The notes: generated from the sequence alone by a model not told the origin. A stretch of 64,000 nt of DNA from Leucoraja ocellata (GCA_036785375.1 JAWMAR010000115.1:4154001-4218000); one strand, 5' to 3'. Positions 15,831-64,000 are shown, numbered from the stretch's first letter. Translations and numbers: made by a program.

Positions 15831-16985
15831 ATTACTTCTTCTACTTCTTCTATGTAGTGTTTTATGGCGGTTGGCAAACAACTTTTTTGGTGCATTACCG
15901 CCACCAACTGGCATGGAGTGTGGATCAAACAACACCATTACATATACTAATAAGCTATATCCTTCTGAACAAATTGGTTACCCTAAGAAAAAGCAACAGG
16001 ATTTGATAGCATTTATATGAACTCCCTTGCAAAATATCTATCAAATTAAATTGTACTCTTTCTTTTCTGAACTGCTCACTCATCCGTCCTCTCTCCTCCT
16101 CATACCTCTCACAATTTTACAATGACATGCTCTATTGTCTCTTCTTGCCCACAGTATTCACATCTGCCTGTATTATGCTTGCCTATTATAAAAGGTGTAC
16201 TGTTCAGACCAGTGTGTCCAAATCTAATTCTTGAAATTACTGTCTCCTCTTTTCTGTTTTTTCCTGCACATCTCATTTCTCCCACTTTCCTCTGGACTCT
16301 GTAGAACCACCATCCTTTTCGCTCTTCCTCCCATTGCTTTTGCCATCTTTCCTTCAGTCTTTGCTTAATAATGTCTTTGATTTCAGTTTTACCTATGTTA
16401 ATACTTAAATCAATCTTACTTCTTTTTGTTACCTCTTTTGCTACCTTATCTGCCATTTTGTTTCCTCTAATGCCAATGTGTGCTGGTACCCATAAAAATA
16501 TGACTGTAAGCCCCATCATTTGAATTCTGAATAGTGTTTGTTGTATTTCAATCAAAATGTCTGGTCTACTATCTGAATGGCTGTGCTGTAAACTCTTTAT
16601 TGCTAAACTTGTATCTGAACAAATAACTGTCCTTAAAGGCCTAGTATCCTCGACCCACTGTACCGCTAACAATATAGCAATCATTTCACCTGTGTATACT
16701 GAGACTTCATTATTGATCCTCTTCCCTACTTTGATGTGAAATTCTGGTACAATAAATGCTACTCCTACTTTATCTACTGAATCTTTTGATGCATCTGTAT
16801 AAATTTGGACAAAACTGTAGTATCTGTCAATGTATTCCTGTATGATGACTGAATTATACATATGTTGTTTATCCCTGTTTTCCTGTTCTAATATTGTAAA
16901 GTCTACTGTTGCATCTGGAAATATCCAAGGTGGAATTGAAGGTAATGGAACCGTTGGAACCACATTTAATTGTGCTATGCTGATT
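15831..16985 (-). mobile_element. Nimb/I-clade LINE, 5'-truncated: RNase H, C-terminal Cys/His knuckle and 3' UTR
   Basis: ORF 16109-17104(-) contains IYTDASK, YTGEMIAI, ICSD, WVPAHIGIRGNKMAD (cellular-type RNase H), then RIRFGH and CEYCGQEETIEH. The 3' UTR has a tggcggt/accgcca stem (15865-15871/15897-15903) and a GAA-rich tail. Confidence 0.85.
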
Positions 16986-17162
16986 TGTAATAGGGCAGAA
17001 TTACTGGGAATTAATTCATTTAAAAGGTGCAACCCGAGCAGACTAAACAAGCCCATCGCATACTCTGAAAAAAGACCTGATTGCAGCATCTCATTCCCAT
17101 CCACACAAAAAGACTGTTGATTCTAAATAGATTTGGTCTTCACCCTTGTAGGTATACTTATG

Positions 17163-17652
17163 TGTCACAGTCTGCCCTCTCCTCATTCTCATCCACTTCA
17201 CCTCCCAGTACTCTTCCACCGGTCCCTCCTTCTCCTCGCCTGCCACGCCCCTCTCATCAGCCCAACTCTCCTCACCTGTTGCAATCAGTTACCTCTGATC
17301 ACCAATTAACCCGGTATATAGACTCTCCTCACCGTTCACACAGTGCCAGATTGTTCTCAGCATTCATGCAAGATTCTCCAGCGACTTCTCGACTTCCTGC
17401 CTGGCTTCGACTCTCCTTTCGTCTGTCCCTCGTTGGTTTGTTTGCATCGTGTGTTGGATCTCCTGGTTACCGGACTTTCTGCTACATTGCCTGCCCCTCT
17501 TCGGAACCCTTGCTCAATCCTGAGCCTCTGTGTGAGTACGGTGTACCCATTCCTGTGTTACTACTCTGTGTTACAGTTTCGTAATAAAGTTCATTACCAA
17601 TTATACCTGCCTGATTCTGTGCTGCTATTGGGTCCAAGCTATACCCGTTACA
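17163..17652 (+). repeat. 5' LTR (490 bp)
   Basis: Starts tgtcacagtc, ends ccgttaca. TATATA at 17315-17320, AATAAA at 17583-17588. Confidence 0.93.
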
Positions 17653-17669
17653 GTACAATCTGGCCAACA

Positions 17670-20600
17670 ATGGACTCAGCGCACACAACGTCTCCGTCAA
17701 ACTGCTTCGAGAGGATTGAGCACACGCTCCTGCAGCACGAAGCTATGCTCACTGCCTCCAACTCTGAGGTTTGACAGACTGTGTCAAACCAAGAGCAGGC
17801 ATTGGTTGCACTAGCCACCCAGGTCCAACAGCTGACAACCACCCTCGCCCAGGCTACACCCCATGCTTCACCTCCGGCTCCGACAGCACCAGCTCCCGGT
17901 CCGTCAGGATCATCACCTGAGCCCCGGGTGGGAACTCCGGAGCGCTACGCTGGAGACCCGGAGGGCTGCAACCCATTCATCATGAACTGTTCCATTCTCT
18001 TCGCCCTACAGCCCTACACCTTCGCCCAGGAAGCGGCGAGAGTGGCGTTTACCATTAATCACCTGACTGGCAGAGCTCGGCTGTGGGGAACGGCTGAATG
18101 GGAGCGACGCAGGCCGGCTTGCTCCTCTTTCCAGGCCTTCGCCGCGGAGCTTCGCAAGGTGTTCGGTGAGGTTTTGATGGGTCCGGATGCTGCGGGAGGT
18201 CTGCTGGGGTTGAGCCAGGGGAACCAGAGCGTCGCTGACTTCGCCATTGACTTTCGCACCAGAGCTCGTCAGAGTGATTGGAACGCCCTGGCCCAGTGTG
18301 ACGCTTTCTTGCTGGGCTTGAATGACTATATCAAGGAAGAGTTGGTGTCCCACGACCTTCCTTCTTCTCTGGATGGGCTTATCGAGCTAACGACCCGTCT
18401 GGACCAATGCATCCTGGCGAGACGTCGGGAGAGGCGACAGGGTCATTACATCTCCAAGTGTCCAGTAAAAGGGCCAGACTCGCCAGTAGCGGAGGAATTA
18501 CTGGTGAGTCGAACCTCTGAACTTTCCTCTGCCCGACGCCCTCTTTGTCATGCCCGTCTGCTGTTGTCTGATGGTTCTCACACCCTCGCCACCTTCATAG
18601 ACTCTGGTTGTGACATTAATCTTATGGACATGGAACTAGCCCGTCAGCTAGGCATCAGTTGTGTTCCCCTGCCTAAACCTGTTCCCGCCAACGCCCTCGC
18701 CGGCCATCTCCTGTGGACTGTTTCTCACCAGACGGTCCCAGTGCGCATGCTCCTGTCTGGTAATCACCATGAGACCATCCAGTTCCACATCCTGCAGTCT
18801 CCCCGTCTTCCCCTCATCCTGGGTTACCCCTGGCTTCGGCGATACAACCCCAACATCGACTGGAGGACGGGGGTCATCTTGGGTTGGAGCCCTTCCTGCC
18901 ACCAAGTGTGCCTGAAGCAAGCCTCAGCTCCTCAACCGGCCACCTGCTCCAGTTCTGCTCCAGATCTGACGGGGGTCCCAGCCGAGTACCATGACTTTGG
19001 GAAGGTTTTTAGCAAGTCTAGGGCCACCTCCCTTCCTCCTGATCGGCCCTATGACTGCGCCATAGACCTCTTGCCTGGTTCCGCTCCTCCTAGGGGTCGC
19101 CTTTTCTCCCTGTCCGCCCCTGAGGCGCCATGGAGAAATACATAAACGACTCCTTGGCTGCTGGTCTCATCCGTCCCTCCTCGTCTCCTGCTGGGGCTGG
19201 GTTCTTCTTCGTGGAGAAGAAGGACAAATCTCTGCGTCCCTGCATAGATTACCGGGGGCTCAACGGCATCACGGTGAAGAATCGCTACCCTCTCCCACTC
19301 ATCTCCTCTGCTTTCGAGCTCCTGGAGGGGGCCACCATCTTTTCGAAATTGGATCTACGCAACGCCTACGCAACGCCTACCACTTGGTCCGCATCAAAGA
19401 GGGAGATGAGTGGAAGACCGCCTTCAACACTCCCACGGGACATTATGTATACCTGGTGATGCCCTTTGGCCTCACCAACGCCCCGGCCGTCTTCCAGGCT
19501 TTGGTCAATGACGTTCTCAGGGACATGTTGAACAAGTACGTGTTCGTCTATCTTGATGACATCCTCATGTTTTCACGGACCAAGGAGGAACACGTACACC
19601 ATGTCCAGGCAGTTCTACATCGGCTCCTGGAGAACTCGCTCTTCGTTAAAACTGAGAAGTGCGAGTTTCACTCCCCGTCAGTCTCCTTCCTAGGATACAT
19701 CGTTGGCCAAGGGAACATCAAGATGGACCCCGCCAAGGTCTCTGCTGTCACCACCTGGCCTGTTCCTGACTCCCGCAAGCAGCTCCAAAGGTTCCTGGGG
19801 TTCGCCAATTTTTACCGACGGTTCATCCGTGGCTACAGTACTGTGGCCGCACCCCTCATGGCACTCACCACCTCCAAGGTTCCGTTCCGGTGGTCTGCCG
19901 CGGCCGATGAAGCTTTTCAGACACTCAAGGCATGGTTTACATCGACCCCCATCCTCCAAGTTCCGGACTCGGAGAGACAGTTCGTGGTGGAGGTGGACGC
20001 CTCCGACGTGGGGGTGGGAGCTGTTCTGTCCCAGCGGGCTGCTGGGGACCGGAAGCTCCATCCATGCGCCTTCTTCTCCTGACGCCTAACCCCTGCTGAG
20101 GGGAATTATGACATTGGCAACCGAGAACTGTTGGCGGTTAAGTTGGCGTTGGAGGAATGGCGTCACTGGCTGGAGTGAACCGAGCAGCCTTTCTTGGTTT
20201 GGACTGACCAAAAGAACCTTGAATACCTCCAGTCAACCAAGAGGCTCAACTCTCGTCAGGCCCGCTGGTCTCTCTTCCTCACCCACTTCAACTTCTCCCT
20301 CTCCTACCGACCTGGGTCCCGCAACGTGAAGCCCGATGCCCTCTCTCGGCAGTTCTTGGCAAAGGAGGAGCCTGCCTCTGGCCCCAAGACCATCCTCCCG
20401 TCCTCGCACAGGGTTGCCTCCCTCACCTGGGAAGTGGAGGAGAAGGTCAAGGCGGCCTTGGAGAACCAGCCGGGACCCAGCGCATGCCCTGCTGATCACC
20501 TGTTTGTGGTTTCTGCCCTGCGGTCCGACGTCCTTCAGTGGGCCCACAGCTCTCGACTCGCCTGTCATCCCGGCATTCAGTGGACCAAGGAGATGGTGCT

Positions 20601-21933
20601 ATGGAGGTTCTGGTGGGCATCGCTGGATGAGGACACTCGGGAGTTTGTCAACGCCTGTCCCGTTTGCAACCAGCGTAAGGTCTCACACCAAGCTCCTGCG
20701 GGTCATCTGCTTCCACTGCCTGTACCCCATCGACCATGGTCCCACATCTCCCTGGACTTCATTACCGGCCTGCCCCCATCCAGTGGTCACACCACCATCC
20801 TGACCGTGGTCGATAGATTTAGCAAGATGGCTCACTTCGTGCCCCTGCCCAAGCTTCCGTCAGCCAAGGAAACTGCCGAGCTCAAGTTACTCCATGTCTT
20901 CAGGCTCCATGATCTCCCCGTCGATATGGTCTCCGACCGGGGACCCCAGTTTGCCTCTGTGTTCTGGAGGGAGTTCTGCACGCTGGTGGGGGCCACCGTG
21001 AGTCTGACGTCCGGATTTCATCCCCAGTCCAACGGCCAAACTGAGAGGAAGAATCAGGAGATGGAGACGGTGCTGCGGTGTATGGTGTCCAAGCATCTCT
21101 CCTCCTGGTCCCAGCAGTTGTTGTTGGTGGAGTACGCCCACAACACCCTGACAAGCTCAGCCACTGGGCTCTCCCCTTTGCAGTGTGCCTATGGTTTCCA
21201 GCCTCCACTGTTCCTGGCACTGGAGAAAGAGGTTTCCTGCCCGTCCGTCCAGGCCTTCATTCGTCGCTGCCGCAGGACGTGGACCCAAGCCTGGGCGGCT
21301 CTTCTCCGCTCCGTGGACCGTTACGCCACGGCTGCCAACCATCACTGCACCCAGGCCCCCACCTACCTCGCCAGCCAGAAGGTGTGGCTGTCGACCCGGG
21401 ACCTTCCCTTGAGGGTGGAGTCCAAGAAGTTGGCACCCAAGTTCATCGGTCCCTTTGAGATCCAGAAGGTCATCAGCCCAGCAGCTGTGAGGCTCAGGTT
21501 GCCTCGTTCCATGCGGGTCCATCCTACGTTCCACGTGTCCAGAGTTAAGCCAGTCCAGGAGAGCTCCCTGATCCCCACAGTCCCTCCTCCTCCACCTCCT
21601 CGTCTCATCGACGGAGGCCCCGCCTTTACGGTGCACCACCTCCTGCGCTCCCGCCGTCGCGGGAGGGGCCTCCAATACCTGGTCGATTGGGAGGGTTACG
21701 GTCCAGAGGAGAGGTCCTGGGTTCCTGCTCGACACATCCTGGACGCCTCCCTCATCAGAGAGTTTCATCGGCGTCCTCCCGACCAGCCGTCCAAGTCCGC
21801 CACTCATAGAGGGGTCGCCGCCCCTGAGACTCTGTCCCCTCTTCCGTCTGAGGCGCCCAGTGACGACGAGATGGAGCTTTCCTCTGATGCCATGGAGGAG
21901 GATGCGGACATGGATGTCTCGGATGAATATTAG
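17670..21933 (+). pseudogene. Gypsy gag-pol, disrupted
   Basis: ATG at 17670 (MDSAH...) with an in-frame TGA at 17772. Gag PERYAGDPEGC; only the GHYISKCP remnant of the zinc knuckle. Protease FIDSGC, RT YLDD, RNase [10 protein letters not shown], integrase HPG..CPVC / SLDFIT / SDRG / GQTER, chromodomain [17 protein letters not shown]. Frameshifts near 19130 and ~19370 (tandem duplication ctacgcaacgc); stops at 20080 and 20176. Confidence 0.93.
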
Positions 21934-21951
21934 CCCTCCTGCGGTCCCCCT

Positions 21952-21973
21952 TGAGGGGGGGGGGGGGGGGGGG
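21952..21973 (+). other. Polypurine tract (PPT) of the Gypsy element
   Basis: ga(g)n run ending 3 nt upstream of the 3' LTR. Confidence 0.85.
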
Positions 21974-21976
21974 TTC

Positions 21977-22485
21977 TGCCACAGTCTGCCCTCTACTCAT
22001 TCTCATCCACTTCACCTCCCAGTACTTTTCCACCAGTCCCTCCTTCTCCTCACCTGCCTGCCTGCCACTCCCCTCTAATCAGCCCAACTCTCCTCACCTG
22101 TTGCAATCAGTTGCCTCTGATCACCAATTAACCCGGTATATAGACTCTCCTCACCGTTCACACAGTGCCTGATTGTTCTTGGCATTCATGCAAGATTCTC
22201 CAGCGACTTCTCAACTTCCTGCCTGGCTTCGACTCTCCTTTCGTCTGTCCCTCGTTGGTTTATTTGCATCGTGTGTTGGATCTCCTGGTTACCGGACTTT
22301 CTGCTACCCTGACTACGTCTCCTGCCTGCCCCTCTTCGGAACCCTTGCTCAATCCTGAGCCTCTGTGTGAGTATGGTGTACCCATTCCCCTGTTACTACT
22401 CTGTGTTAGTTTCATAATAAAGTTCATTACCAACTATACCTGCCTGATTCCGTGCTGCTATTGGGTCCAAGCTATATCCGTTACA
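21977..22485 (+). repeat. 3' LTR (509 bp)
   Basis: Starts tgccacagtc, ends ccgttaca. Colinear with the 5' LTR, with scattered substitutions and small indels. Confidence 0.93.
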
Positions 22486-40893: not shown

Positions 40894-41093
40894 NNNNNNN
40901 NNNNNNNNNNNNNNNNNNNNNNNNNNNNNNNNNNNNNNNNNNNNNNNNNNNNNNNNNNNNNNNNNNNNNNNNNNNNNNNNNNNNNNNNNNNNNNNNNNNN
41001 NNNNNNNNNNNNNNNNNNNNNNNNNNNNNNNNNNNNNNNNNNNNNNNNNNNNNNNNNNNNNNNNNNNNNNNNNNNNNNNNNNNNNNNNNNNNN
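40894..41093. other. Assembly gap (200 N)
   Basis: Run of 200 n characters. True length unknown. Confidence 0.99.
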
Positions 41094-41739
41094 CAGGGAT
41101 TGGCTGCGAGAAGTGCCAGGGAGTCTGGAACTTGGATACCATTTGCAAGCAAAGAATGGGAAGCCTTGCAAACCCTGTCAATCTGGAACTAAATGCATTG
41201 AATGGATTGGATGGCTGCAAACCAGGCATACATCTTGTAAATAGTTTGTAAATCATGTGGCAGAGTCTGACTCTGCTAAGTGTTGATTGGATGAGGTGTT
41301 GAGCCTTGTCTGAGATTTCTGTTAATCAGGGTAAAGTCTGTTGTGAATACAATGTATTGAACTGTTGTATCATTGGGTTAGGGAAATGCCTGTTATGTGT
41401 GGGGTTAATCAATATCTGTAATTGGGTGATTAAGAGACAACCCCCATGTGGTTCGGCCCTCGAGTTCCCAGGGCATATAAAAGTCCGTGGTCACGAGGCT
41501 CAGGGTCGATCTTCTGGAAGAGCGCTCAGGACCGAGTACCCTTCTGGAGTGCCTCTGTCTGCGCGAGGCATAGAGGGCTTGAACAGATAGATGCAAGGAT
41601 CGAACCTGTGGTGGGATAGGGTACATTGTGTGATATGTGACGTGCTTTTGGTAAAATAAAATCGAGTTGATTCAAGTGCTTGATTCAGTGATTTTACTGA
41701 AACTAGACTGGGGGGATGCTTGGAAACGAGCAATTATCA
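41094..41739 (+). mobile_element. Endogenous retrovirus 5' LTR (5' end lost in gap)
   Basis: Several ATTGG (reverse CCAAT) boxes, TATAAAA at 41476-41482, AATAAA at 41655-41660. Ends ...ttatCA one base before a PBS. Confidence 0.7.
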
Positions 41740-48729: not shown

Positions 48730-48814
48730 ATGAGGTCACAACTGCGCAGCAACATACCAGCTACTTTGAAGTTACATTTTTTTTTCCTTCTATTTCCATC
48801 AGTTTTCACCCAAA
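48730..48814 (+). CDS. Signal peptide exon (MRSQLRSNIPATLKLHFFFLLFPSVFTQ)
   Basis: Acceptor ttcattcttacAG (exon starts 48708), aaaATGa start, hydrophobic core LHFFFLLF, phase-1 donor CAAA|GTAAGT. Confidence 0.8.
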
Positions 48815-51800
48815 GTAAGTGTTTTATTTTAACCAGTCAAAATCATATTGTTTTGTTTTATCATTATGTTTAATTAATTTATACACCTGTACTGAGAAAG
48901 CAACTTGGACTTTATTTCTTTATCTCTGCTCTGTTAAATGTCTTAGAAGAACACCACAAGCTAAAACAACTTGCATCTCCATGAAACAAAACGTAGGTAC
49001 TCAGCGGGTCAGTTAGCATTTGAACATGTTGAAAATCTAGCGGCTACCAAAAAGATGCTATGACTCTTTGGGCGACGGAGGAGACTACTCACGACCATAC
49101 AGGCGACACCCTGGTGGCCATGTGGCGACAGCTTAGTCGCCTGTAGTCGTCTAAAAAATAGCCTATGTGGGACAGGCCCTTTACACTTCCACATCTGTGT
49201 CTCCATCTCCGCTGACTCTCAGTCTGAGAAGGATTTCAACCCGAAACGTCACCAATTCCCTCTATCCAGAGATGCTTCCTGTCCCGCTGAGTTACTCCAG
49301 CATTTTGTGTCTATACCAGTATAAACCAGCGTCTGCAGCTCCTTCCCACACAATTAACAGTTAGATACAGGTGAGAGGGGTTTGATTGGTAGATGTATGG
49401 AGTAAGTGATAATGCTTAAAGGTGAAAAGTAGACAAAAGGGTGTCAAATAAAGAGAGAAGCGGAGTGAAATGTCAAGTTGGAGGGAAGGATATTTGCTCA
49501 AGATTCCAACATCTGCAGTTTCATTTTTGTATCTATCTCTTTGTTCATCAACACCATTCCCCACTATGCCTATTAATGAATGGTTTTCCATTGATCCTAC
49601 TGATAATGAAGTTTCATAGTGAAAACAGGATGCTCATTTCAGAATTACATTGAGAACACATCTTGTATTCCACATTTCACTCTTGGGTTGTATGTGGAAT
49701 AGTTTAAAATGTAACCTTAAAATCAAGATTAGAAACTATTGAAATTATTGTTCTACTGCTCCCCAGTAATATAAAGCCTGCAGAGGAGGACTCTTGAGCA
49801 TAACACAAAATTCTGGAAGAATTCTCAATGGGTTATGCAGCATCTGGAGAGGGAATAAACAGACCACTTTTAGAGTCAAGATCACTCATCAGACTTCTTC
49901 TGTTTGAAGAAGGGTCCCGACCGAAAATTACATCTGCCCCTTCCCTCCTCAGATGCTGCCGGACCCCCTGAGTTTCTCCAGCATAATAATAACTATGGGA
50001 TTAAGAAGTTGCTATTACACGTTAAAATGTTTCCATCATTCCTCTTTCTAACAGGAAATCCAAATCATTTTTATTTTTTGGATAAGAAAGGTGACTTTCT
50101 GTTAAAAGGTCCAGGTGGTTTTGGAAATGGCCGCGTGGTCTGGGAATGGAAACCACACACAGAGCAGGAAGTTCAGCTGCTTGGGACATTCCACAATGGG
50201 GGTTGGACCTGGTGGAACGCACAGTGGAAGGATGACAGCAACTTGTACCAAAAGATTGAACGGGATCCTGAAAACATCGACCTGAGAATTAGAAACCCTG
50301 CATTTCAAGTTGCAGGGTTGTTTACCTTGACTCAAACACAGCCGAGCAAGAAAATTCTAAAGCAGTATGAAATATTTGGGATCAAAGGTGAGTGGCAAAA
50401 TTCTTTGGGATCATATGGGTCTCATTAAGTAATTTGATTTTTAAAGATGGGATCGGCAGAGGGATTGGTGAGGGATTGGTCTGAAGAAGGTTCCCTATCT
50501 GAAACGTTGTCAGTCCATTTTCTTCCACAGGTTATCCCTGACCCATTTAATTCGTGTAGAACATTGATTTTTGCTTTATGATTCTTATATTGTCTATTAT
50601 AGAGTAGATTGGTTATCAGTGTTATCAGAGGAAAGATTTTGGACTCAAAGTTCTGTATCACTAATTTAAATCATTTGTACCTCAAAGCATTATAAGAGCA
50701 AGAGTAGGCTCTTTGGCCTTTTGCTCCTGCTTCACCATTCATTGTGATCTTGCTTGATCTACTACCTCAGCACCATTTTTCTAAACTATCCATTGATTCC
50801 CTCATATGCAGAAATCTATTTATCTCTGGTTTTAATGAACTCAATAATCAATGCCACTTTGGGTAGAGAATTGCAAAGATTTAAGTCTCTCTGCGCTACA
50901 GAAATTTCTCCTCATCTTAGCCCCGAAGAGCTCACCTGATTCCTGAATTGAGCATTCTTACAGGGAAAGCAGCCTCCATGCATCCATATTGTCTCGAAAA
51001 AAAATGTAAATTTCAGAGATCCCCCTTTATTCTTTAAATTATAGTGAATACAGGCCTAGCCTACTCAATCTCTTCTCAGCCCTGGAGCGAGTCCAGTGAC
51101 TCCTTGCTGCACTCCTTTTATAGCAAGCATGTCAGTTTATTAAAATTAAGAATTAAAAACTGTACACAATTCTCCAATACCTGTCAAACCTAGAGACTTG
51201 GGTACAATGGTGATTTTAGTTGCTGTCTGTATGGAGTTTGCATATTCTCCCTATGACGGCATGGGGTTCCTCCAGGTGCTCCAGATTCCTCTCACATCCC
51301 ATTGATGTGCGGGTTTGTAGGTTAATAGGACTCTGTAAAAGATAAATAATTATCTTTTACACAAATAAAAACATTTCTTCCATCGAACGTGTCCAAAGAC
51401 ATGCAGCTCGATTTGTTACTAACACCTATGAGAGAGCAGCGAGTGTCACCAAACTTCTGAATTCTCTGGGGTGGAACCCTCTCCAAGACAGACGTGAAGC
51501 TCACCGTTTGACCTGTTTTTACAAAATGTTAAATGGTCAGATGGACATAGACTACAAGACCTACACCAAACCCAAACCAATTAGGAGCAGACGAGGGCAT
51601 TCGATCCAATTTGTGATCCCAGCTACAAAGGCAGATGTGTACAGCAATTCGTTCTTCCCCCGCACAATTAAAGCATGGAATAATCTCCACCCAACTAAAG
51701 TTACCCAACCAGATGCAACTAAATTTAAAGTAGCTCTTTCTTCCCAATAACCCTTCTGGCTTAAGCCTTCCCTTCACCACCTCCAGTTTAAATTCTATTT

Positions 51801-54800
51801 GGAATATTTTGGAAGACCAAGAAACCAAGAACCAAGAATTGCCCTGAGTAATATAAGATAACATAGAACAAGAGTGAATGGGTGATCAACGTTTGGTGTG
51901 GACTATGGGCTGAAAGACCCGTTTCCATGCTTTCTAAATTAAACTAGACATCTCTATTCCTGTATTCTAACCCTTGCTTGCTGCATCTGCATTTTGACTT
52001 TCCTAGATTTGTGTACCAAAGTACCTTTTAATTTCAAAATTACCCATGACTTAAAAGGTATTATAATAATGTTTAAAATTAATTTTGTGCCCAGACTCCC
52101 ATGTGTCGGGTGATGTGACTGAAGAGCGCTGGCACATTGAGGACAGAGGTTGACTGGTGCCTCCTCCTTGTCCAATAACACAGTCACTACATTTCCAGCC
52201 CACCCTTCTTTAGTTCCTTTATCTACCCACTGTGGTGTCAATGGACACAAAACACAGGCCAAACTGTGTGGCCCTGAGCTGAACCCTGACACCTCAATAG
52301 ATTCAGTGGGGGGGGGAATGTCAGTGGGTCTGTTCATCCCCACTGAAGTTGGTGTAGCCAGACTGATCTTTTATGGACCCACTATGTTATTCTATGTCTG
52401 AGGTCCACCAGTGTGACTTCACTCACTGAGATAGGGAAGTGTAATCTGATAATGGGAACATCACAAGGTTGCTTTGAATCACTCATTGCACTACTCATAA
52501 AGTCATAGAGTCAAACAGCATGGAAATAGGCTCTTTGGCACAACTTGCTCATGTCGACCAAGATGCCCCACCTACACTAGTCCGACCTGCCTGCCTTTGG
52601 TCCAGATCTCTCTACACCACTTTGAATCTCATTGATCTGTTTTTTACAGTTGAGGCAAGTCCACAGCACCCTCTGCTGGGCAGTGACATCACACTCAGCT
52701 GCACCATCTCCAGACTCTCAGATACAGTCAGTCTTCAGTGGAGACCAATGGATTCATCCCAGCAGAACAGGAGGGACACTGATCAGATCCGCCTGAATAA
52801 CACGGTCTATCTGATTGTTAAACATGTTACAGTTGAGGACGAGAAGCAGTTTGTGTGTGAAGTGCAGGAAAATGGAACCATTATTCACACAGAAAAAGCA
52901 CATTTTTCACTCATTCAGGGTAAGTGCTGTTACCACAAAAATTCTGATATCTAAGCATGGCATTTAAAATGAAATACAAGGATGTAGTTTCTGTGCAATG
53001 AGCCTAGGTTGGTTGAATGAGCCATATCCTTGATCATGTGATTTCTTGATCATACTCAAGGGTGAATGATGGACAACAACAACTCCTGCTCACAGTGGGG
53101 ATCCAGGAGAGCCAGATGCACGTCACCACTGAGCAAAAACTGCTCACTCTCTCTCCTCAGTGACCTTTCTCACTGAGAGTTGCTGCAGTTTGCAATGATT
53201 GTACCTGCGACTGTATCCTTGCACTTTGATGAGCCATCAGCCGGGAGCACGAGTCAAGAGTGTTTTAAAGAGTGTTTTAAAGAGTGTTTTATTGTTTTAC
53301 ACCCCAAAAGGAAACAATGAAATTCTTACTTGCGGCAGCCCAACATATATCTAAACATAGTACACAGTAAAAACCATATTAAACAACAAAAAAGTTCAGT
53401 ACATATATTAAAAAACAAATAACAACAATAATAGTGAAAATTCAAAGATAATGTCTCCAAGTCTAACTAGTTGTAGTATTTAATAGCCTGATGATTGTAG
53501 GAAGGAAGCTGCTCCTGAACCTGAACATTATAGTTCTCAGGCTCCTGTATCTTCTTCCCGATGGCAGGAGTGAAATGAGAGTGTGGTCAGGGTGGTGTGT
53601 GTTTCTGATGATTTTTTGAGGCAGCAAATCTTGTAGATCCCTTTGATGTTGGGGAAGTCCGTACCCATGATGGACTGGATAGTGTTCACCACCTTTTGCA
53701 AGGTGATGGGAATATCGAAAAAGTTTACAAACTTCCAAATGTTTTCATCTGCAGAATTTTATTAAGTAGAAGTTAAAACTCTGGGACAATTTCGTTAAAA
53801 GATACAAGTACCTTTCAGAGGAAAAACAAAAGTGGGATAAACAGACCAACCAAAGGCTGGTGTAATGTTCCATCCAGAGATTGCCAGAAAGAATATAAAT
53901 TTTACCTGGAGACTGGCTCCAGGCCGGAGGAGGAGCAATTTAAAGTAGAGAGCACCAATATCAATTGGTTTCACATTGTCCTGAGATGAATTTATAGCTC
54001 TGAACAACCTAATTGACAGATTGAATGGCCAATAAGCAGGTGTCTGCACCACAGGTAGAAAGCTTTAACACCAGGTTGGAGCATTGCGGGAATGAGCGAG
54101 ACATGGTGGAGTAATGGTGCTTGGGATGCAGTGGTTGCCTTGTGGTGAGGTGCAAAACATGGTGTTTGGGAAACTGGAACAAAGCTGTTGAACTAGACAC
54201 AAGGAACTACAAATGCTGAAATATTCAGCAAAAAATAGAAAGTTCATAAGAGCAGAATTAGACAATTTGGCCAATTGATTCTACTCTGCCATTCACGCAT
54301 GGCTGATCTATATTTCCCTCTCAACCCCATTCTACTGCCTTCTCCCCATAACCCTTGACACCCTTATTAATGAAGAACGTGTCAATCTCTGCTTTAAAAT
54401 ACCAAATGCTCTGCCTCCGCAGCCGACTGTGGCAATGAATTCCACAGCTTTTCCACCTTCTTCTAAAGGTACGTCCTGTTATTTGAGCCTTTGCTTTCTG
54501 ACCCCAGATTCTCCCACTAGTGGAACATGCTGTCCACATCCACTGGAATAACTAAGTGGGTCAGACAGCATCTTGTGAGAAGGTGGATAAGTGACATTTT
54601 ATGTCAGACTTCCAGACCTGAAACATCATCTATCAATGTTCTCCCCAGATGTTGCCTGACATGCTGAGTTACTCCAGTACGTTGTGTATTTTACTCAGGA
54701 TGCTGTCACAGTTGGGGTTGGTTGGTAAGGGCAAGGATGTGGCCTGTTTAAGTTATCCCAGGGCCCGAGAATCCAAGCTGCCTCTGGTTCTAAGCAATGG

Positions 54801-57800
54801 GGGATATCTTGTGATGATCCATGCTTAGCTTCTCCTGCAACTTATATCAGAAGATAGGCAAACTAGTCTAAACTACATGCCCAACCCCTGAACGGTCAAT
54901 CCTCAAATCAGCAGGAGCCTGCTGCAGTATTGTTCCTCTAGTGGAGCTCCATAAAGCCCAACATTTGGTTCTTGTGTCAGAGGAAGGTTGGGTAATGAAT
55001 TCCACTCATTTTGACAAAAAATCGATCAGTGAAGGTCAGTGATCAGGACAAGAAGTACGTTTGTAAAATAGTCGCCATTAAGTAATCGTCGGTTTTGATC
55101 TGTACCTCTGAAATACTAACATTGTTTTCCTGTCCTCTCTGCAGGTTTATATAAAAAGAGTTACACACTTTACCGCTCAGGCTCCGATCACAGTGAATTC
55201 CACATGATCTGTCAGTCTGTCACCTATTACAATCAAGCTACATGGACCCGAAGGGCTCCTTTTCAAAACGCGGGGAAAGAAATAGCATCAGCGTTGAAAT
55301 ACCGACAGATTAATTTCGACAGGACCTATTTTGGGAATCGACTAGTCTCTAAAGTGACAAATTTTAATGGCGTTAAGTTCAACGTGAGGATTGTCCCTGT
55401 ACTGTTTGAAGATGCAGGGCTTTACACATGTTTTCTGGAGTCAAATAGATTTGTGAATATTAAACTGATCACAGTTAAAGGTAGGAGACGGGAATGTTAT
55501 TACGGTTTTCAGAAGAAAATTCCATTGATTGAAATCTAAATAATTTTCTTGTTTTCAGTCACAGCTGAGCCGTCTGATGCATTGACTGAGGGAGACAACG
55601 TTACCCTGACCTGCTCTGTGTCTCACGTCACTGAGTCAATGAGACTTATTTGGATCAATGGTGATGGCAAAACTGTTGGAGAAAAGGCACTGACTGTGGA
55701 AGATAAATCACTGAGGCTGGTTATACAGAAAGCTGCGAGAGGTGGAGGGAACTGGAGATGCGGTTTGTTTATTGGACACCTTCCCCAGGTTTTTATCGCA
55801 TACTATGTGGAGCAGAGTGGTAAGTGACGCAGAGTTTGCTCTTTATAATTTAGTTTGGTTTCGTTCAGAGAAACAGTATGGAAACAGGCCCCTTTGGCCC
55901 AATGAGGCCACAGTGACCATAGATCACCTGTTCACGCAAGTTATTTGTTATCCCAACACACCTAGAGCAATTGTTTTTCAGAGGCCAATTACCCTACAAA
56001 TCCAAGATAGGCACACAATGCTGGAGTAACTCAGCGGGACAGGCAGCATCTCTGGATAGAAGGATTGTTCTATCACGAGATGCTGCCTGTCCCGCTGAGC
56101 TACTCCAGCATTTTGTGTCTATCTTCGGTTTAAACTAACTTTGGGATGTTGGAGGAAACCAGAGCATCTGGAGGAAACTCATGCAGTCATTGGAAGAACG
56201 TGCAACACTATCCACTGTGCCACTCTTAATATACTCAGAATGTCATTCAAATATTCTTATTACTTACCAAGGGTGGCACGGTGGCACATCTACCTTACAG
56301 CACCAGAGATCTGGGTTCGATCCTGACCTCGGGTGCTGACCCCGCGTCCTCCCGGCCCCGTTTCGTCAGCCCCTCATGTTACGCCCACCCCGCCTTTGCG
56401 GACCACACGTTCTGGTCATTCCATACGGGTCCCCGCTCGGTTCCGTACCTCGGGTTCTGGGGGGGGGGTCCTTTAGCGGCACCTACTGGTGCCTGTAGGT
56501 AGTCGAACCCCTTCCCACAATCATGTGACTGTGGGGAGGGGTTTTTGTTTTTGCCCGTTTTCTGGGCAAGCCCCATTCATTCTTTTGAGCACCGTCGTGG
56601 TAAGAACTTTTGTGTTTAGCTGTTGTATGATCGCCGTTGTTTTCACCACTTTAACAATAAAGCTCGTTTGGAAATCAACCATCTCGACTCACAAAAACAT
56701 TTTCTTTCTTCTCTGCCAATCTCACTGAGTGAGATTGGAGTTTCATCCCTTCCCTTTTCACTGAGAGTTGGTGCACTGTGGGGACCGTGGGGCCATTCAG
56801 CATCTCTTAAATATATGGGGATGGCATTTGGGAAGGCACCAGGCAGATCAATGGAAGGGTACAATCAAGCATATTTAGATATTTATTTTTCAGTGGAAAA
56901 AAAAGTCAAAGGAAACTATTTCTTCTCCATTTCACTGATTAATGGCTCTCATTGAGTTTTGTGACTGCAGTTTCCCTTTTAAAACAAATCAGTTCCTTTA
57001 TGCAGCTTTCTTTAATCAGATAAAACACAGGTTAAAACATAGCAGATTGCTTATACATATATCTCTTTCTCTTACTCGTGTTCGTTAACTGGGGCATTGA
57101 AAACTCGAATCAGGAAGTCATAATGCAACTCTGAAGAAGGCTCTATATAAGGGTCTCAACCTGAAACGTCACCTATTCCTTTTCTCCAGAGATGCAGTCT
57201 GACCCGCTGAGTTACTCCAGCTTTTTGTATCTATTGTCAGTTTCAACCAGCATCGGCGGATTCCTTCCTACACATGCAACTCTGCAATCTTTGGTCACAC
57301 CGCATTTGGGGTATTATATGCAGTTCTGGTTGCCCTACTACTAGAAGGATGTGGAGGCTTTGGAGAAGTTGCAGACGTTTAACAGGATGCTGCTTTGATT
57401 AGGGGGTATTAGCTCCAAGAAGAGGTTGGACAAACTTGGATTGTTTTCTCTGGAACACCATAGGTTGAGAGAAGACCTGATACAAGTATATAAAATTAGG
57501 CATAGTTCAGGTAGAAAGTCAGAATCTTTTCTCCAGGGCAGTAATGTCAAAGCTTTATTGGAAGAGTGGCAAGGTTTAAAAGGGATGTGCATGGCAAGTA
57601 TTTTACACAGAGGTGTCTGGAACACACTGCTAGGTGTTGATGGAAGCAGACACGATAGTGGCATTTAAGAGGACTTTGGATAGGCACAGGGATACGCAGG
57701 GAATGGAAGGATATTGATCATGATCACTCAGATGAGTTCAGTTTAGCTTGGCATCACAGACTTTACAGACTGAAGGAACTGTTTCTGTGCTGGACTTTTC

Positions 57801-60800
57801 TATGTTCTATTATAATCAGGAAATGACTGATTAACTGGATGACTCATTTGCCTAATATGGATGTGCTCTGAAACTTGAAATCTGAATTATTAATAAAACT
57901 GGTCTGAGAACAATTTTTCCACAGCATGAATTATTACTTGAAATAGATTGAGAAATTGCTTGCGTTAAAAGCCCTGATTCTTTTCCTTGCAGGAATTGGA
58001 AATTCGATTTACTTTTACCACCAGGAAGGCAACTTTGTATTGAAAGGACCAGACAGTCCTGGAAATGGTCCCATTGACTGGGAATGGAGGCCACACTCAG
58101 GGCAACAAACCACAAAGCAATTGGCCACTTTTCACAGAGATGATCAGCAGTGGGCCGTACAATGGAGTGATGAGTACAATCAAATACCAGGCATTTCCCA
58201 GAGGGTGCGTGCAGACTGGGGTACCCTTAATCTGAGGATCAGGAAGCCCACCTTTGAACTTGCGGGGCTATACACCTGGACTCAGACACAGTCCGGTGGG
58301 AAAATCCTAAAACAGTGGGAATTATTTGGGATCAAAGGTAAGTTTGACAAGAAATATAAAAGGTTCAAGAACGCAACATTTTGTTAGTAATACCACAGGT
58401 TCCCTCAGCACACATTTGGATTCCAATTAGAGATACAGGTCAGAATAGATCTTATTTAAAATATTACACACAGTCAGATTGATAACCTTGCATAGCGCCC
58501 GAGGTCTGGACGAAGCCCTGAAAGGGGTACAGTGTTTCAGCTGATAGAGCGGCCGTCTCACAGTGCAGGATAGACTCTGGTTCGATCCTGACCTGAGTTG
58601 CTTGCTGTCTGCGTGGAATTTGCACGTTCTCCGTGCATCGGTTTCCTCCAACATCCTAAAGATGTGCAGGTTTGTAGGTTAATTGGTCTCTCTAATATTG
58701 CCCTGGCATGCAGGGAGTGGATGAGAAAGTGGGATAATATAGAACCAGAGTGAATGGGTGATCCATAGTTGGTATGGACTTAACGAACAGAAGGGTCTGT
58801 TGCCAAGCTATATCTCTAAAATAAACAAAGCTAAATGTTTTATCCAACATTCTGCCTGCAGCAGTTCAGAAAGCTGGTGGCGAACGTAACCACATGTCAT
58901 GTGTTTGTTTCCACAGTTGAGGCAGACTCACCGAGCCCAGTAATGGGCAGTGACATCACCCTCAGCTGTACCATCTCCAGACTCCCAGATACCGTCAGTC
59001 TTCATTGGAAACCAAGAGGCTCATCTCAGCAGAACAGGAGGAACAACACTGATCAGATCCGTCTGATTAACACCGTCCATCTGATGGTCCAACATGTTGG
59101 AGCAGGAAATCCCAATCTGTACACATGGGAAGTGCAGAGAAATAGCTCCATTGTTCTCACTGGAGACACCAATGTTGAAGTGGATCAGGGTGAGTCCAAA
59201 GCTGCCTTGCATTTGAGGTTGGGGTTGATAAGACCAGAGATAAGACAGAGGTGTGAAACAGGTTCCCCCCAGGATCAGTCTAAAGAAGGGTCTCCACCCG
59301 AAACATCGCCTATTCCTTTTCTCCAGAGATGCTACATGACCCGTTGAGTTACTCCATCATTTTATGTCTATCTTCACTTTAACCAGCATTTGGAGTTCCT
59401 TCCTACATGATTTATTTCAATTCACAGCTATGAATTAAAAGGAATACATATTTTTTAATAATAATTTCAGTTTGAGTTTCAAATCAAACAGAGAAATACA
59501 AAGAACTTAAGTGTCTCAATAAAGGCATTGCAATGTTAAGGTCTTCACTGAGACTATCGCCTGCTGTCAGTCACTCACCAAAGAGAACAGGGTGTCCATA
59601 TATGACAGGTGATTTCATCCTGTCCATTATCTGATGAGCTGCATATTAATGTTAGAACATACTGCGGTTCTTGAGAAATTTGATCAAACATCTCTTGTTA
59701 ATGCAAGATTAACAATGAATTGTTAACTATTTTAGTTCAAATGAAAAACCCAAACAAATCAAAGGTGCCAAATACAATAGTTGAGACCATTAGAGATGAC
59801 AGAATCCTAACACCATGTAACAGATTGCTTATTATCTCCAGTCCACCAGCATCACTTTGCCTGGCCTGTGTCTGGGGAAATGGACTTTGTTCCACAGCCT
59901 GGCATTTGAACAATGGGCACCTGGACCAGCAGCCGATGTATTCCAGCTCCCAGTCGACTTCCCTGTCCCAGTGCAGCCCTCCCAGCTGACGTCCCAGAGT
60001 CGGGGGTTTGTCCCTGTGGAAACTCAGAACATCTGTATCTCAGCATCTGTGGAAATCTAATTATTTTTTTTCCTGACCCTCTCTTGCAGATTTACACAGT
60101 AAGGCGTACACAGTTTATCGCTCAGTCACAGATCACAGTGAACTCGACCTGATTTGTGAAGCTTCTCCTGAGCTCAGTGAAACCAAATGGACTTGGAGAT
60201 CACAAAATTTCCAGAATCAAGAAAAAGAAATAGCTTATTCTCACAGGTCTGAGCCGATCCATGTGAACAGGAGCTACTTTGGTAATCGAATGGAAACCAC
60301 AGAGGGAAATGTGAATGGCAAGAATTTCAGTGTGAGGATTGTCCCTGTGCGATTAGCAGATGCCGGAGTTTACACATGTTCCATGGGATCAAATAAATAT
60401 GTGACCATTGAACTAATCACAGTTACAGGTAAGAAAAGATTCCAAGATACAATTTATTTGTCATTTGGACCCCTTGAGGTCCAAACGAAATGACGTTTCT
60501 GCAGCCATACATTACAAACAAATAGACCCAAGACACAACATAATTTACATATACATCCATCACATTGCTGTGATGGAAGGCCAAAAAAACTTATCTCTCC
60601 ACTGCACTTGGAGATCAAAAGAAAGAATGTTCCATTAGTTTCCTGTTGTTAAGTCATTTAGTTTGGTTTGGAAAAACAAACCAAAGTCATTGAGAGAAGG
60701 TTAACACTTTAGGAATTACCAAACACAGTATTACAAATGTTTCTTTCTCTCCATCACCACACCAAAGCTTTACTTTAAAGGTTTACATATGTTGCTGTAG

Positions 60801-63617
60801 TCAAAAATTTCCTCTGAACTGCCAGAGACTGGTAACATTTTAAAATCACTTTTTGTTGTGATACGTCATAAATATCCTTTAAAGCATTTGCATTTTGATA
60901 AAAGCGGAAATAAATGTGTCAAAGTAGGCAACACTGTGGTGTAGCTGATAGATCTGCTGCCTCACAGCACCAGAGACTCAGGTTTGCTCTTGCTTCGGGT
61001 GCTGTCTGTGTGGAGTTTGCACACTCTCCCTGTGATCATATGGATTTCCTTTGGGTGCTCCGGATTTCCCCCTCATTCTCAGGACGTGTGGGTTTGTAAG
61101 TTAATTGGCCTCTGCAAAAATGCCTCTATCGTGTTGGAAGTGCAAAAGTGTGATTACATAGAACTAGCGTGAATGGGTGAAAATTGGTCGGCATCGAGTT
61201 GGTGGGCTGAAATTCCTATTTCCATGCCGAATAAAAAAAAAACCCCAGTGATAATCCAAAACCATTTTAATATCTGTAGGAAGGAACTGCAGATGCTTGT
61301 TTACACCGAAGATAGACAGTAAATGCTGGAGTAACTCAGCGGGACTAGCAGCAACTCTGGACAAAATGTCACCTATTCCTTTTATCCAGTGATGCTACCA
61401 TTCCCGCTGAGTTACTCCAGTGATTAGTGTTTACCATTTTAAAATCACTAAATATAAATGTAAATATATACTAAACAATGTTCCAATTAAACAGTAATGG
61501 TAGGTTAATGACTTATTACATTTAAACAAAGTTTCACTAAAAACCCATTATATGTACTTAAGATTGTCCTTGCCTCCACAGTTTCCTTTTATATTTTGAA
61601 TCATCCCCAATGTACCCATATCTAATGGAATCCTTGCATGTGATTAATACACTGTGGGCTGTGTGTGTATGAGTGATTTTAAAGTTTGGGACCTATGTTT
61701 TGAGGCTTGGTAGATTTTTTCTCTACTAATTTATTTACAAAGGCAGCATAAAAATCGTAGAAACCCGAGTCCATTGAATGCAAATAGTGCTTGAATTCTG
61801 GTGACCTTTCATGTTGGCTACATCAATTCAGGTGAGTTACATTGAAAAGTCAAATAGAAATTTGGGGGTGCTGTTTGTAATTCCAGTGGTGTCCTTGTTT
61901 CCACAGTCACAGCTGAACCGTCTGATGCAGTGGCTGAGGGAGACAATGTTACCCTGACCTGCTCTGTGTCTCACGTCACTGAGACAATGAGACTAGTTTG
62001 GATTAATACTGATAGAAAAACCATTGGAGAGGAGCATTTTAATGAACACAGACAGGATAGGAAATCTTTACAGCGGACTATTCCAAAGGCAGATGCAGAC
62101 AGAAGGAAATGGATTTGTGGTTTGTTTCATCAAAATAAGCCCAAGATTTTAATTTCTTATCAGAAGAAGAAACGTAAGTGTTCTCTGTGTTCTTTGTTCT
62201 CTGTGACGGCTGCAGAAAGATTAGCTTCTCTTTCAGTAAGATAAGCTCCTGCTTTTTTTTAAATCATTGTATCCACTATTACAATCTATATTATTCAGTG
62301 TTCAGTTACAGATGTTCACATATAAAGAGTTTAAATTACAATTCATCGCCACAGGTCAAAACACTGCATTAAATGCAATGCACTCTTCACTCAGGCACAC
62401 TTTAAGGGAGAGGGGGAATTAGGTAAAATAGGGATTAATGTTACATTATGGTAACTAAAATAATTACATTATTACATACATTATTATAGGAACACACATA
62501 ATTTGCACATTAATGCAGTAAGATGCCAATAATTACATTTAAATAGCTGTATAAAATATAGTGATTTATTTTATAAAACAAATGCCAAACAGTGTTCTCT
62601 CTTTGTCTCGAACTTTGACGATTAATATCTACCCAAACAAGACCAATACAGGACCCATGACCGAGACCTGAGCAGCCGGGTCTAAAGTCACAACTTTACA
62701 CCTTTAGTTGAGGCCATATATATTTTGTTTCAGTTCAGGCAACCGATATTCGAATATTGTGCTTATTTTTTCCTTCATTCACCTGATAATGTTCATATTA
62801 ATTTGAACCTATTGAAGCAAAAAGACTCAGACAAAAATGACCAACCTCATAAAAATAAAAACACTCTAGACCTGGTCTCCCATAATTTGATGCAGAATGT
62901 TTTCATTGTTGCATCATTTATAGGATATAGAATATTGCACAGGAACAGGCTCTGCAGCAAAGATTATATAATCTTTGCTTTGCAGTGTACAAAGTCCGTG
63001 CCAAACATGATGCCAGGACCAAGTCTTATCTGTCTGCACATTATCCATATACCTCCATTCTCTGCATATCCATTCCCCACGTATCCATATGCCTTTCCAA
63101 AAGTGGCCAATATCATATCTGCCTCAACCACAGCCCCCACCGGGTGCATTCCAGGCACTCACCACCCTCTGTGTGAAATAACTTGACCCGCACATCCTGC
63201 CCCACTCGCTTCAAAGCTATGCCCTCTAGCAGTTGATTTTTCCATCCTGGGACAAAGGTTTTGACTGTCTACCCAAATCATGCCACTCATAATTTTATAG
63301 ATTTTGGTCAGGTCTCTCCACAGCCTCCAATGTTCCAGAGAAAGCAATCTGGTCTGTCCAACCTCGACCTGTAACTGATATCCCCTAATCCAGGCATCAT
63401 TATGGTAAATCTCATCTGCCCAGAATGAATGATAGAAATATTTAATTGCTGAACATTATTGGGAGTGAAACTGAAAATAACAAATTTGTCCTTCACAGTG
63501 AGACTACTTGCGAACATTTGGATCATCATAGTTTCAAGCTACTTGTTTCTTAAACTGATCGTTGCTTTTGGATTAATTTGCTGCTTGAAGGGGATAAAAA
63601 GAAGAAACAATTCTTGA
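48730..63617 (+). CDS. Spliced gene model (10 coding exons, 875 aa): type I membrane receptor with eight Ig domains, CD4/LAG-3-like, with TM lysine and short tail
   Basis: join(48730-48814,50055-50387,52650-52919,55145-55480,55559-55819,57993-58337,58917-59189,60090-60428,61907-62173,63499-63617). All introns GT-AG and phase 1; total 2628 nt with no internal stop. Confidence 0.88.
49010..49180. mobile_element. PIF/Harbinger-like MITE fragment (one end)
   Basis: Ends gtgggacaggccct|tta (GGGCCTGTCCCAC-type TIR with a TWA target). Other end not found. Confidence 0.45.
50055..50387 (+). CDS. Ig domain exon D1 (V-like, no cysteines)
   Basis: tctaacAG|GA...ATCAAAG|GTGAGT, 333 nt. C-strand WEW, LRI E-strand, AGLFTL in place of DxGxYxC. 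Confidence 0.88.
51440..51840 (+). mobile_element. CR1/L2-group (Crack/Daphne-like) LINE 3' end inserted in a SINE
   Basis: LQDRREAHRLTCFYKMLNG...YSNSFFPRTIKAWNNL with an (accaaga)n tail. Splits a SINE copy (~51195-51340 and ~51840-51945). Confidence 0.6.
52650..52919 (+). CDS. Ig domain exon D2 (C2-like)
   Basis: tttttacAG|TT...CAGG|GTAAGT, 270 nt. VEASPQHPLLGSDITLSC...LQW...FVCEV. Confidence 0.92.
53250..53700 (-). mobile_element. Rex1-like LINE 3' fragment (intronic)
   Basis: HPDHTLISLLPSGRRYRSL...RFRSSFLPTIIRLLN, the typical Rex1/Babar C-terminus. Confidence 0.7.
55145..55480 (+). CDS. Ig domain exon D3 (canonical V-set)
   Basis: ctctctgcAG|GT...AAAG|GTAGGA, 336 nt. MIC...W...YFGNRL...FNVRI..V.FEDAGLYTC. 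Confidence 0.93.
55559..55819 (+). CDS. Ig domain exon D4 (C2 with WxC)
   Basis: gttttcAG|TC...AGTG|GTAAGT, 261 nt. VTAEPSDALTEGDNVTLTC...LIW...GNWRC. Preceded by a 78-bp intron. Confidence 0.93.
57275..57810 (+). mobile_element. CR1 LINE fragment (intronic)
   Basis: LDKLGLFSLEHHRLREDLIQVYKI and a CR1-type 3' end. Confidence 0.75.
57993..58337 (+). CDS. Ig domain exon D5 (paralog of D1, no cysteines)
   Basis: ccttgcAG|GA...ATCAAAG|GTAAGT, 345 nt. LKGP..GNG...WEWRPH...LRIRKP.F..AGLYTWTQTQ..KILKQ..FGIK is shared with D1. Confidence 0.9.
58524..58830 (+). mobile_element. HE1/V-SINE-like SINE (intronic)
   Basis: B-box ggttcgatcc, core and tail as in the other copies. Confidence 0.7.
58917..59189 (+). 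CDS. Ig domain exon D6 (paralog of D2; F-strand Cys replaced by Trp)
   Basis: ttccacAG|TT...CAGG|GTGAGT, 273 nt. GSDITLSCTISRL.DTVSL.W...SSQQNRR...LYTWEVQ. Confidence 0.9.
60090..60428 (+). CDS. Ig domain exon D7 (paralog of D3, V-set)
   Basis: ctcttgcAG|AT...ACAG|GTAAGA, 339 nt. DHSELDLICEAS...KWTW...YFGNRM...FSVRIVPVRLADAGVYTC. Confidence 0.92.
60935..61230 (+). mobile_element. HE1/V-SINE-like SINE (intronic)
   Basis: Diverged copy of the SINE family. Confidence 0.7.
61907..62173 (+). CDS. Ig domain exon D8 (paralog of D4, WxC)
   Basis: ttccacAG|TC...AAAC|GTAAGT, 267 nt. VTAEPSDAVAEGDNVTLTC...LVW...KWIC. Confidence 0.92.
62930..63415 (-). mobile_element. CR1 LINE fragment (intronic)
   Basis: LSLEHWRLWRDLTKIYKIMSG...ARGHSF on the minus strand. 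Confidence 0.7.
63499..63617 (+). CDS. Terminal transmembrane/cytoplasmic exon (LRLLANIWIIIVSSYLFLKLIVAFGLICCLKGIKRRNNS*)
   Basis: Acceptor tttgtccttcacAG (63498), phase 1 and in frame with D8. A ~23-aa hydrophobic stretch with one Lys (63552-63554), CC, basic stop-transfer KGIKRR, and TGA at 63615-63617. Confidence 0.8.
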
Positions 63618-64000
63618 AGTTTTCCGGAATGCCAAGGTGCCATTGACTTTGGCAAAGTGGATGTTCATTAATTAGATCATTTTGTATACAATTCAGAATT
63701 TAAAGGGATTATTACTGCTTGACACAAGGATACAATTGTTCAAAATTATGTGACATATTCTTCAACATTCAAACAGCTGTAATTTCTCTGCTCCCACTTT
63801 CACTGAAGGAATTATAGAGTTCATGTAGGACCATGGCTAACGACTAAACAATGCTCAAGACAAGAGCCCAATGTTGCTACATTTTCCACTGACCGTCACA
63901 AATATTTATTTTGGAGATTCGTAACTTCAGCGACGTCAGAATTCAATCTTTGTTTGTTTGTGAAAGTATTATCAGAAAAATTACTGGAAATATTACTGTG

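Follow-up and report, generated by a model that had tools for sequence, protein, structure and literature searches.

A likely activating receptor of an unnamed CD4/LAG-3-like family in the skate Leucoraja ocellata

An eight-domain receptor gene and its last exon

The window analysed here, i.e. the whole of a 64,000-nucleotide stretch of DNA from the skate Leucoraja ocellata (GCA_036785375.1 JAWMAR010000115.1:4154001-4218000), carries a gene predicted to encode a receptor with eight immunoglobulin (Ig) domains. Its last exon encodes a transmembrane (TM) segment with a lysine in its middle and a short tail. The receptor is likely the "on-switch", i.e. activating, member of an unnamed CD4/LAG-3-like family of sharks and rays, as judged from the comparisons below. 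The gene model has 10 exons and 875 residues without internal stop, and all its introns are in phase 1. It comprises a signal peptide, eight Ig domains (a V-C2-V-C2 block present twice, D1 to D8), the TM segment and a tail of 9 residues:

48730..48814, + strand: exon 1, signal peptide; ATG open reading frame (ORF), phase-1 GTAAGT donor
50055..50387, + strand: D1, V-like Ig domain, no Cys; AG/GT, phase 1; no Pfam match
52650..52919, + strand: D2, C2-like Ig domain, two Cys; Ig_3, E 1.3e-6
55145..55480, + strand: D3, V-type Ig domain, two Cys; V-set, E 0.042
55559..55819, + strand: D4, C2-like, WxC motif (WRC at residue 407); Ig_3, E 2.4e-6
57993..58337, + strand: D5, Cys-free duplicate of D1 (53/110 identical)
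58917..59189, + strand: D6, duplicate of D2 (50/89 identical), one Cys
60090..60428, + strand: D7, V-set duplicate of D3 (54/111 identical); V-set, E 3.7e-10
61907..62173, + strand: D8, C2-like duplicate of D4 (48/86 identical), WxC motif (WIC at residue 816), phase-1 donor; ig, E 3.7e-6
63499..63617, + strand: exon for the TM (Lys type) and the cytoplasmic tail (9 residues, no Tyr), with stop
63540..63542, + strand: TM tyrosine, 4 residues N-terminal of the lysine; in 17/17 Lys-type TMs, also in bowfin and sturgeon proteins
63552..63554, + strand: mid-membrane lysine, residue 855 of 875, codon AAA; K in 16/16 homologues with the site masked
63579..63584, + strand: Cys-Cys at the inner membrane edge; pair in 6/17 Lys-type TMs, not conserved
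63615-63617, + strand: stop codon of the receptor gene, ending the 9-residue tail

The eight Ig exons upstream of the TM are all bounded by AG/GT and in phase 1. D1-D4 are repeated as D5-D8 with 48-56% identity. Six of the eight Ig domains have a Pfam match, D1 and D5 having none; D1 and D5 have no Cys, D6 has one and the remaining domains have two each. The V-like status of D1 is presumed from its position and its weak similarity to D3 and D7. In D6 the cysteine of the F strand is changed to tryptophan, as it is in sawfish and skate relatives, and D1 and D5 keep a W-E-W-x-x-H motif common to bowfin and sturgeon relatives.

The sawfish protein LOC127569165 (P0012) has the same length as the window model, with 667/875 identical residues (76%), the same TM, the same D8-TM junction and the same stop position. 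Exon 1 aligns with its N-terminus at E 0.13, a value weak by itself. A division of the locus into two tandem four-domain genes was discarded: nothing between D4 and D5 passes convincingly as a TM exon, and the sawfish model also has eight domains. A weak TM candidate at 56499 was set aside as well, since it lies outside every region matched by relatives at the tblastn reporting threshold.

A preliminary description of this DNA had reported a TM helix with central lysine, di-cysteine and short tail, and this sequence is indeed present at 63499-63617. In phase 1, read from 63501, the exon translates as RLLANIWIIIVSSYLFLKLIVAFGLICCLKGIKRRNNS followed by the stop; frame 1, starting at 63499, is closed. 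The acceptor is a CAG in a pyrimidine-rich context, graded moderate (10/15 pyrimidines). As this acceptor and the D8 donor (62173/GTAAGT) are both in phase 1, the predicted splice keeps the frame. The lysine is flanked by 12 mostly hydrophobic residues on its N-terminal side and by 11 on its C-terminal side, and the best 21-residue Kyte-Doolittle mean is 2.44. From the end of the TM to the stop there is no GT dinucleotide, thus the tail is not extendable by a canonical splice.

The stop-to-stop ORF around this exon has only 54 residues, and 51 hydrophobic segments of 19 residues (Kyte-Doolittle mean of at least 2.0) occur across the six frames of the window. Such segments being common, the case for the TM exon rests on homology and gene structure: by tblastn the exon is matched by 7 of the 65 relatives described below (best match 67% over 39 residues, E 6.7e-9), and the matches are collinear with the remainder of the gene. 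The tails of the window protein (63600-63640) and the sawfish protein stop after about 9 residues, and those of the named shark proteins of the Lys type have 35-45; a six-frame search downstream in the window found no relic of the second cytoplasmic exon of the sharks.

No neighbouring gene was detected in the window beside the receptor gene. The 142 ORFs of at least 70 residues at 1-49.8 kb gave only four Pfam matches, all retroelement ORFs, and Rfam gave none in the window. A Gypsy/chromodomain long terminal repeat (LTR) retrotransposon lies at about 17240-22410, with terminal repeats 95-97% identical and a coding region split over several ORFs. The RNase H-containing fragment adjoining it (16112-17122, - strand) probably derives from a non-LTR retroelement. 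An assembly gap accounts for 200 N at about 40900-41100.

Tail classes, TM lysine and ectodomains in sharks and rays

With D7 as query, 65 of 97 candidates were returned, all from sharks and rays and none with an immune-receptor name. Sorted by motif pattern, they comprise 44 proteins with tail motifs resembling the immunoreceptor tyrosine-based inhibitory motif (ITIM), 7 with a Lys TM, 5 with an arginine in the outer part of the TM, 2 with an uncharged TM and no ITIM, and 7 without TM; isoforms and some fused or truncated models are among those counted. With 44 ITIM-like against 7 Lys-type relatives, the early guess that the gene belongs to a paired receptor system is well supported. The 7 Lys-type proteins come from six species, every one of which also has ITIM-type proteins, and the Lys TM coincides with loss of the ITIM tail in 7/7 named proteins.

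The five Arg-type proteins are all from Mobula (P0004, P0030, P0031, P0033 and P0054) and have short tails without the ITIM-like pair. In a tree of the TMs, their TM groups with the uncharged TM of the ITIM-bearing P0009, and an independent, FcRγ-style activating form is suggested. In sawfish and catshark, relatives sit on contigs of equal length and have adjacent LOC numbers, which suggests that the genes of the family lie in tandem clusters; within the window, tblastn of the relatives found no paralogue of the receptor gene. The nurse-shark member P0041 is deposited as "obscurin-like".

An exhaustive profile search yielded 367 matches with E<=0.001, and the listing covered 150 of them. Bowfin, sturgeon and paddlefish relatives make up 5 of the 6 matches of the named follow-up search, and the bony-fish follow-up gave 71 matches, zebrafish si:ch73-7i4.3-like genes among them. 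Almost every follow-up relative bears a label such as uncharacterised, hypothetical or generic Ig-domain protein; a DICP, CD4 or LAG-3 name is given to none of these matches. The members from cyprinids, characins and catfish appear without the first domain (C2-V-C2) and with ITIM-like tails. An open-access library, when searched, yielded no paper describing the family, and the gene identifiers brought up a single title, on the zebrafish brain transcriptome; most subscription papers fall outside this coverage and may mention the family. A CD4/LAG-3-like paired family in elasmobranchs appears undescribed; the signalling mechanism of the receptor type is already known and of textbook standing.

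The conservation of the lysine was assessed with this residue masked in the TM query, over 270 collected proteins. Sixteen of them match with E<=7.1e-4, each with K at the site; the next matches, from E 0.002, have other residues there. The preliminary description had made its reading depend on a conserved lysine, and this is what the masked comparison returned. Adding the window to these 16, which were chosen by masked similarity, gives a set of 17 Lys-type TMs, in all of which Y-4, L-3, K, L+1, G+6, L+7 and I+8 are invariant. The short Tyr-free tail, also claimed at the outset, holds for the 9 residues of the window protein and for 15 of the 17 Lys-type tails, the two with Tyr belonging to unnamed representatives.

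The di-cysteine, presented earlier as a special feature, does not keep that status. The Cys-Cys pair is found in 6 of the 17 Lys-type TMs, at least one Cys in 12 and neither in 5, and a juxtamembrane Cys occurs in 33/33 uncharged-type TMs (matched by pattern); it is therefore not a mark of the subtype. The extended TM motif was likewise dropped as a sign of extra constraint: uncharged TMs are equally conserved, with a mean identity of 62% for the Lys-type vs 70% for the uncharged type.

The alignment of a bowfin relative takes in all four domains as well as the TM, where GYLxVK is in register (E 2e-35), and GYLxVK is common to the bowfin and sturgeon relatives. TM homology between the Lys-type genes and these proteins is suggestive only. 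TM shuffle tests with the bowfin and sturgeon sequences gave 4-74 of 20000, but the motif itself had served to pick out these sequences, and of 190 unrelated TMs, given up to 17 registers, at least 10 outscored the bowfin TM. A more distant family member, the unnamed representative P0114, has a different central-Lys TM and is possibly another independent activating form.

Ectodomains and TMs of the family group differently. In sawshark, P0058 (Lys) and P0062 (ITIM) are identical at 416/429 residues of the ectodomain (97%) and at 26/78 from the stalk onward (33%). When a tree is built from the V-C2 unit nearest the membrane (84 chosen rows, outgroup not monophyletic), Lys-type genes of sawshark and catshark stand beside ITIM-type genes of the same species, and monophyly of the Lys type by ectodomain is rejected by the approximately unbiased (AU) test (p-AU 1e-53, 37 named rows). 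The TM tree, with the Lys column masked, places the Lys type in one clade (40 rows; Shimodaira-Hasegawa-like approximate likelihood ratio test, SH-aLRT, 100), from 38 columns only and with a long-branch warning. The Lys TM would be one lineage whose ectodomains group with inhibitory paralogues, and the conflict between the trees matches the ectodomain homogenisation reported for mammalian paired receptors (PMC3210942).

For the window gene homogenisation is, on this comparison, partial, because D5-D7 are paralogue-like (best identity to a skate paralogue 86-90% vs 77-82% to the sawfish orthologue) and D1 and D3 are orthologue-like. D1 is 78% identical to sawfish P0012 and 41-49% identical to 7 skate paralogues, the values for D3 being 78% and 46-51%. 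Besides the shortness of the TM alignment and its long-branch warning, two points count against the explanation favoured below: none of the 7 skate paralogues sampled stands out as an inhibitory twin that would share the distal domains and the ligand (D1 and D3 reach only 41-51%), and fused database gene models in tandem clusters (P0001, 1710 residues) could mimic a mosaic ancestry and inflate the signal of homogenisation.

Comparison with known receptor families

The family profile has LAG-3 as its top PDB match (E 1.4e-14), a narrower profile giving PD-L1 (3e-7). With the CD4/LAG-3 family as described in PMC10768021 the window protein shares the V-C2-V-C2 block, the WxC of the fourth domain (here D4 and D8) and a D1 uninterrupted by an intron, as in shark CD4 and LAG-3. 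It differs from that family in that the block is duplicated to eight domains, D1 and D5 lack both Cys, the TM is charged and the protein belongs to a multigene family; moreover WxC, the family criterion in both C2 domains, is missing from D2 and D6. Shark CD4 and LAG-3 are separate genes, already identified (PMC10768021). Identity with CD4 was rejected because CD4 has a tail spread over several exons with a Cx(C/H) motif for Lck binding, the tail here being 9 residues within the TM exon and without that motif, and identity with LAG-3 because its (F/Y)xxL(D/E) tail motif is missing (PMC10768021). The catshark gene ids of the family have no match in the supplements of that paper.

The DICPs resemble the family as clustered Ig receptors with ITIM-inhibitory and charged-TM activating forms, some having four domains (D1a-D2a-D1b-D2b; bioRxiv 2021.06.11.448072). 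In contrast to the window protein, their domains are reported to keep C23/C104, most with extra DICP-specific Cys (bioRxiv 2021.06.11.448072). DICP identity fails on this cysteine pattern: D1 and D5 have none, D6 has one and no domain has an extra Cys. DICPs are MHC-linked (major histocompatibility complex) and reported in teleosts, holosteans and coelacanth (bioRxiv 2021.06.11.448072); the name is also absent among the 65 elasmobranch relatives. With KIR2DS, TREM, SIRPβ1, PILRβ and Siglec-14 the window protein and its family share the central TM lysine, short tail, ITIM-bearing paralogues and ectodomain homogenisation. The ectodomain is unrelated to those of the mammalian DAP12 paired receptors, and, unlike in mammals, sharks and rays appear to have retained a single lineage of activating TM. 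By analogy the window protein would work like KIR2DS/TREM-type receptors, being a member of none of those families.

The teleost G6f-like proteins also have four Ig domains (PMC3528668), and the nearest Atlas clusters, G6f-like (score 0.96) and CD4, were treated as leads only. G6f-like identity was rejected, a cytoplasmic ITAM (immunoreceptor tyrosine-based activation motif) and YxN being required (PMC3528668) and the window protein having no cytoplasmic Tyr. Teleost NITRs and LITRs are likewise paired activating and inhibitory Ig receptors, but NITRs have V/V-I domain types and are reported as confined to bony fish. LITR domains are of the C2, FcR/LRC-like type, and skate MDIRs have CD300/TIM-like V domains.

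Adaptor coupling, its alternatives and their meaning

The explanation we favour starts from the gene structure, the conserved lysine, the short Tyr-free tail and the ITIM-bearing paralogues; splicing, adaptor binding, activation, leukocyte expression and a ligand of the receptor are its predictions. An eight-Ig type I receptor, incapable of signalling alone, would associate with an ITAM adaptor dimer of the DAP12 type, its central TM lysine binding the acidic TM pair of the dimer, and would thereby be exported to the cell surface. Once its V domains engage a ligand, the ITAMs would be phosphorylated and Syk-family kinases activated. Within its clustered elasmobranch family the gene would be the activating member, the others having two ITIM-like motifs and a TM without charge. 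We consider adaptor-coupled activation of any kind, by DAP12-type or other adaptors, highly probable, and a DAP12-type adaptor specifically somewhat better than an even bet.

In mammals DAP12 is the partner of type I proteins with a central TM lysine, and FcRγ is that chosen by an N-terminal arginine (PMC1440944; PMC13107469). The window protein has the signal exon, type I layout, central conserved lysine and short Tyr-less tail of such a client. The preliminary description had the receptor activating cells through DAP12 or a related acidic adaptor, and this stands in part: the position of the lysine fits the mammalian rule (PMC1440944), but catfish IpLITR2.6b breaks it (PMC4810170). The latter weighs against DAP12, as it has a TM lysine yet pairs with FcRγ, FcRγ-L and CD3ζ-L instead of DAP12, with binding unaffected by K-to-A (PMC4810170). 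To this is added that an elasmobranch DAP12 is not mentioned in the available text of PMC3964593, PMC11372145, PMC6795676 and PMC4701786, no sequence search for it having been made. On the other hand zebrafish Nitr9 is reported to signal via Dap12 (PMC2442602), and FcRγ was not found in sharks in a 2014 screen, as far as reported in the available text (PMC4016189).

The behaviour of IpLITR2.6b fits a receptor that is activating with another acidic-TM module as partner (CD3ζ/FcRγ-type, DAP10 or a CD3 dimer), which we hold possible though not probable; the conserved Tyr and Gly of the helix would then possibly matter as much as the lysine. In its favour, of the four adaptor names only cd247 appears in the available part of the marker sheet for bamboo shark, which is a marker list only (PMC11372145), and seven TM columns are invariant in 17/17 sequences when mammalian DAP12 clients are described as sharing the lysine only (PMC13107469). 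However, the extra invariants may reflect slow evolution, TM identity not exceeding that of uncharged TMs, and an invariant K is unnecessary for a Lys-independent mechanism. The FcRγ variant is further opposed by the N-terminal Arg of mammalian FcRγ partners (PMC1440944) and by the 2014 screen already cited.

Ionisable TM residues are generic signals for retention in the endoplasmic reticulum and for assembly. The lysine might thus help the receptor to assemble, or to pass quality control, with a partner that has no ITAM; alternatively the receptor might be a non-signalling decoy or adhesion protein competing with ITIM members, as a tail without any motif would allow. We regard this as distinctly unlikely: all seven named proteins with the Lys TM have also lost the ITIM tail, and the separate Arg/short-tail TM of Mobula is what one would expect of a family that has recruited activating adaptors more than once. 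It is very improbable that the last exon is not joined to D8 at all, the gene ending elsewhere (as a secreted form or at an ORF at 62739) or being a pseudogene. This TM is found in 0/7 named skate proteins, two Leucoraja models end without TM and the 63499 acceptor is moderate; nevertheless the frame is open across 10 exons with introns all in phase 1, and the sawfish model has the identical junction and stop position. The ORF at 62739-62806, 21 hydrophobic codons that follow a good acceptor within the last intron, has no homologue among the 270 collected proteins (best E 2.8) and is probably due to chance.

The available text of two reports gives NITR and KIR/LILR-type genes as not found in cartilaginous fish (bioRxiv 2021.06.11.448072; PMC4016189), hence little is known of the receptors by which the innate leukocytes of these fish balance activation against inhibition. 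We see as unlikely, taken as one joint claim, that the family is an ancient paired system of jawed vertebrates from CD4/LAG-3 stock, with a single activating TM module (GYLxVK) that predates the split of sharks and bony fish, was kept during repeated exchange of ectodomains with inhibitory paralogues and forms MHC- or pathogen-sensing natural killer or myeloid receptors in cartilaginous fish. If true, it would concern the very animals in which NITR and LRC-type genes were not found. The family offers clonable candidates of both signalling classes with a CD4/LAG-3-like ectodomain, and with it one can test directly which adaptor is used, whether MHC is bound and how old the coupling of Lys to adaptors is.

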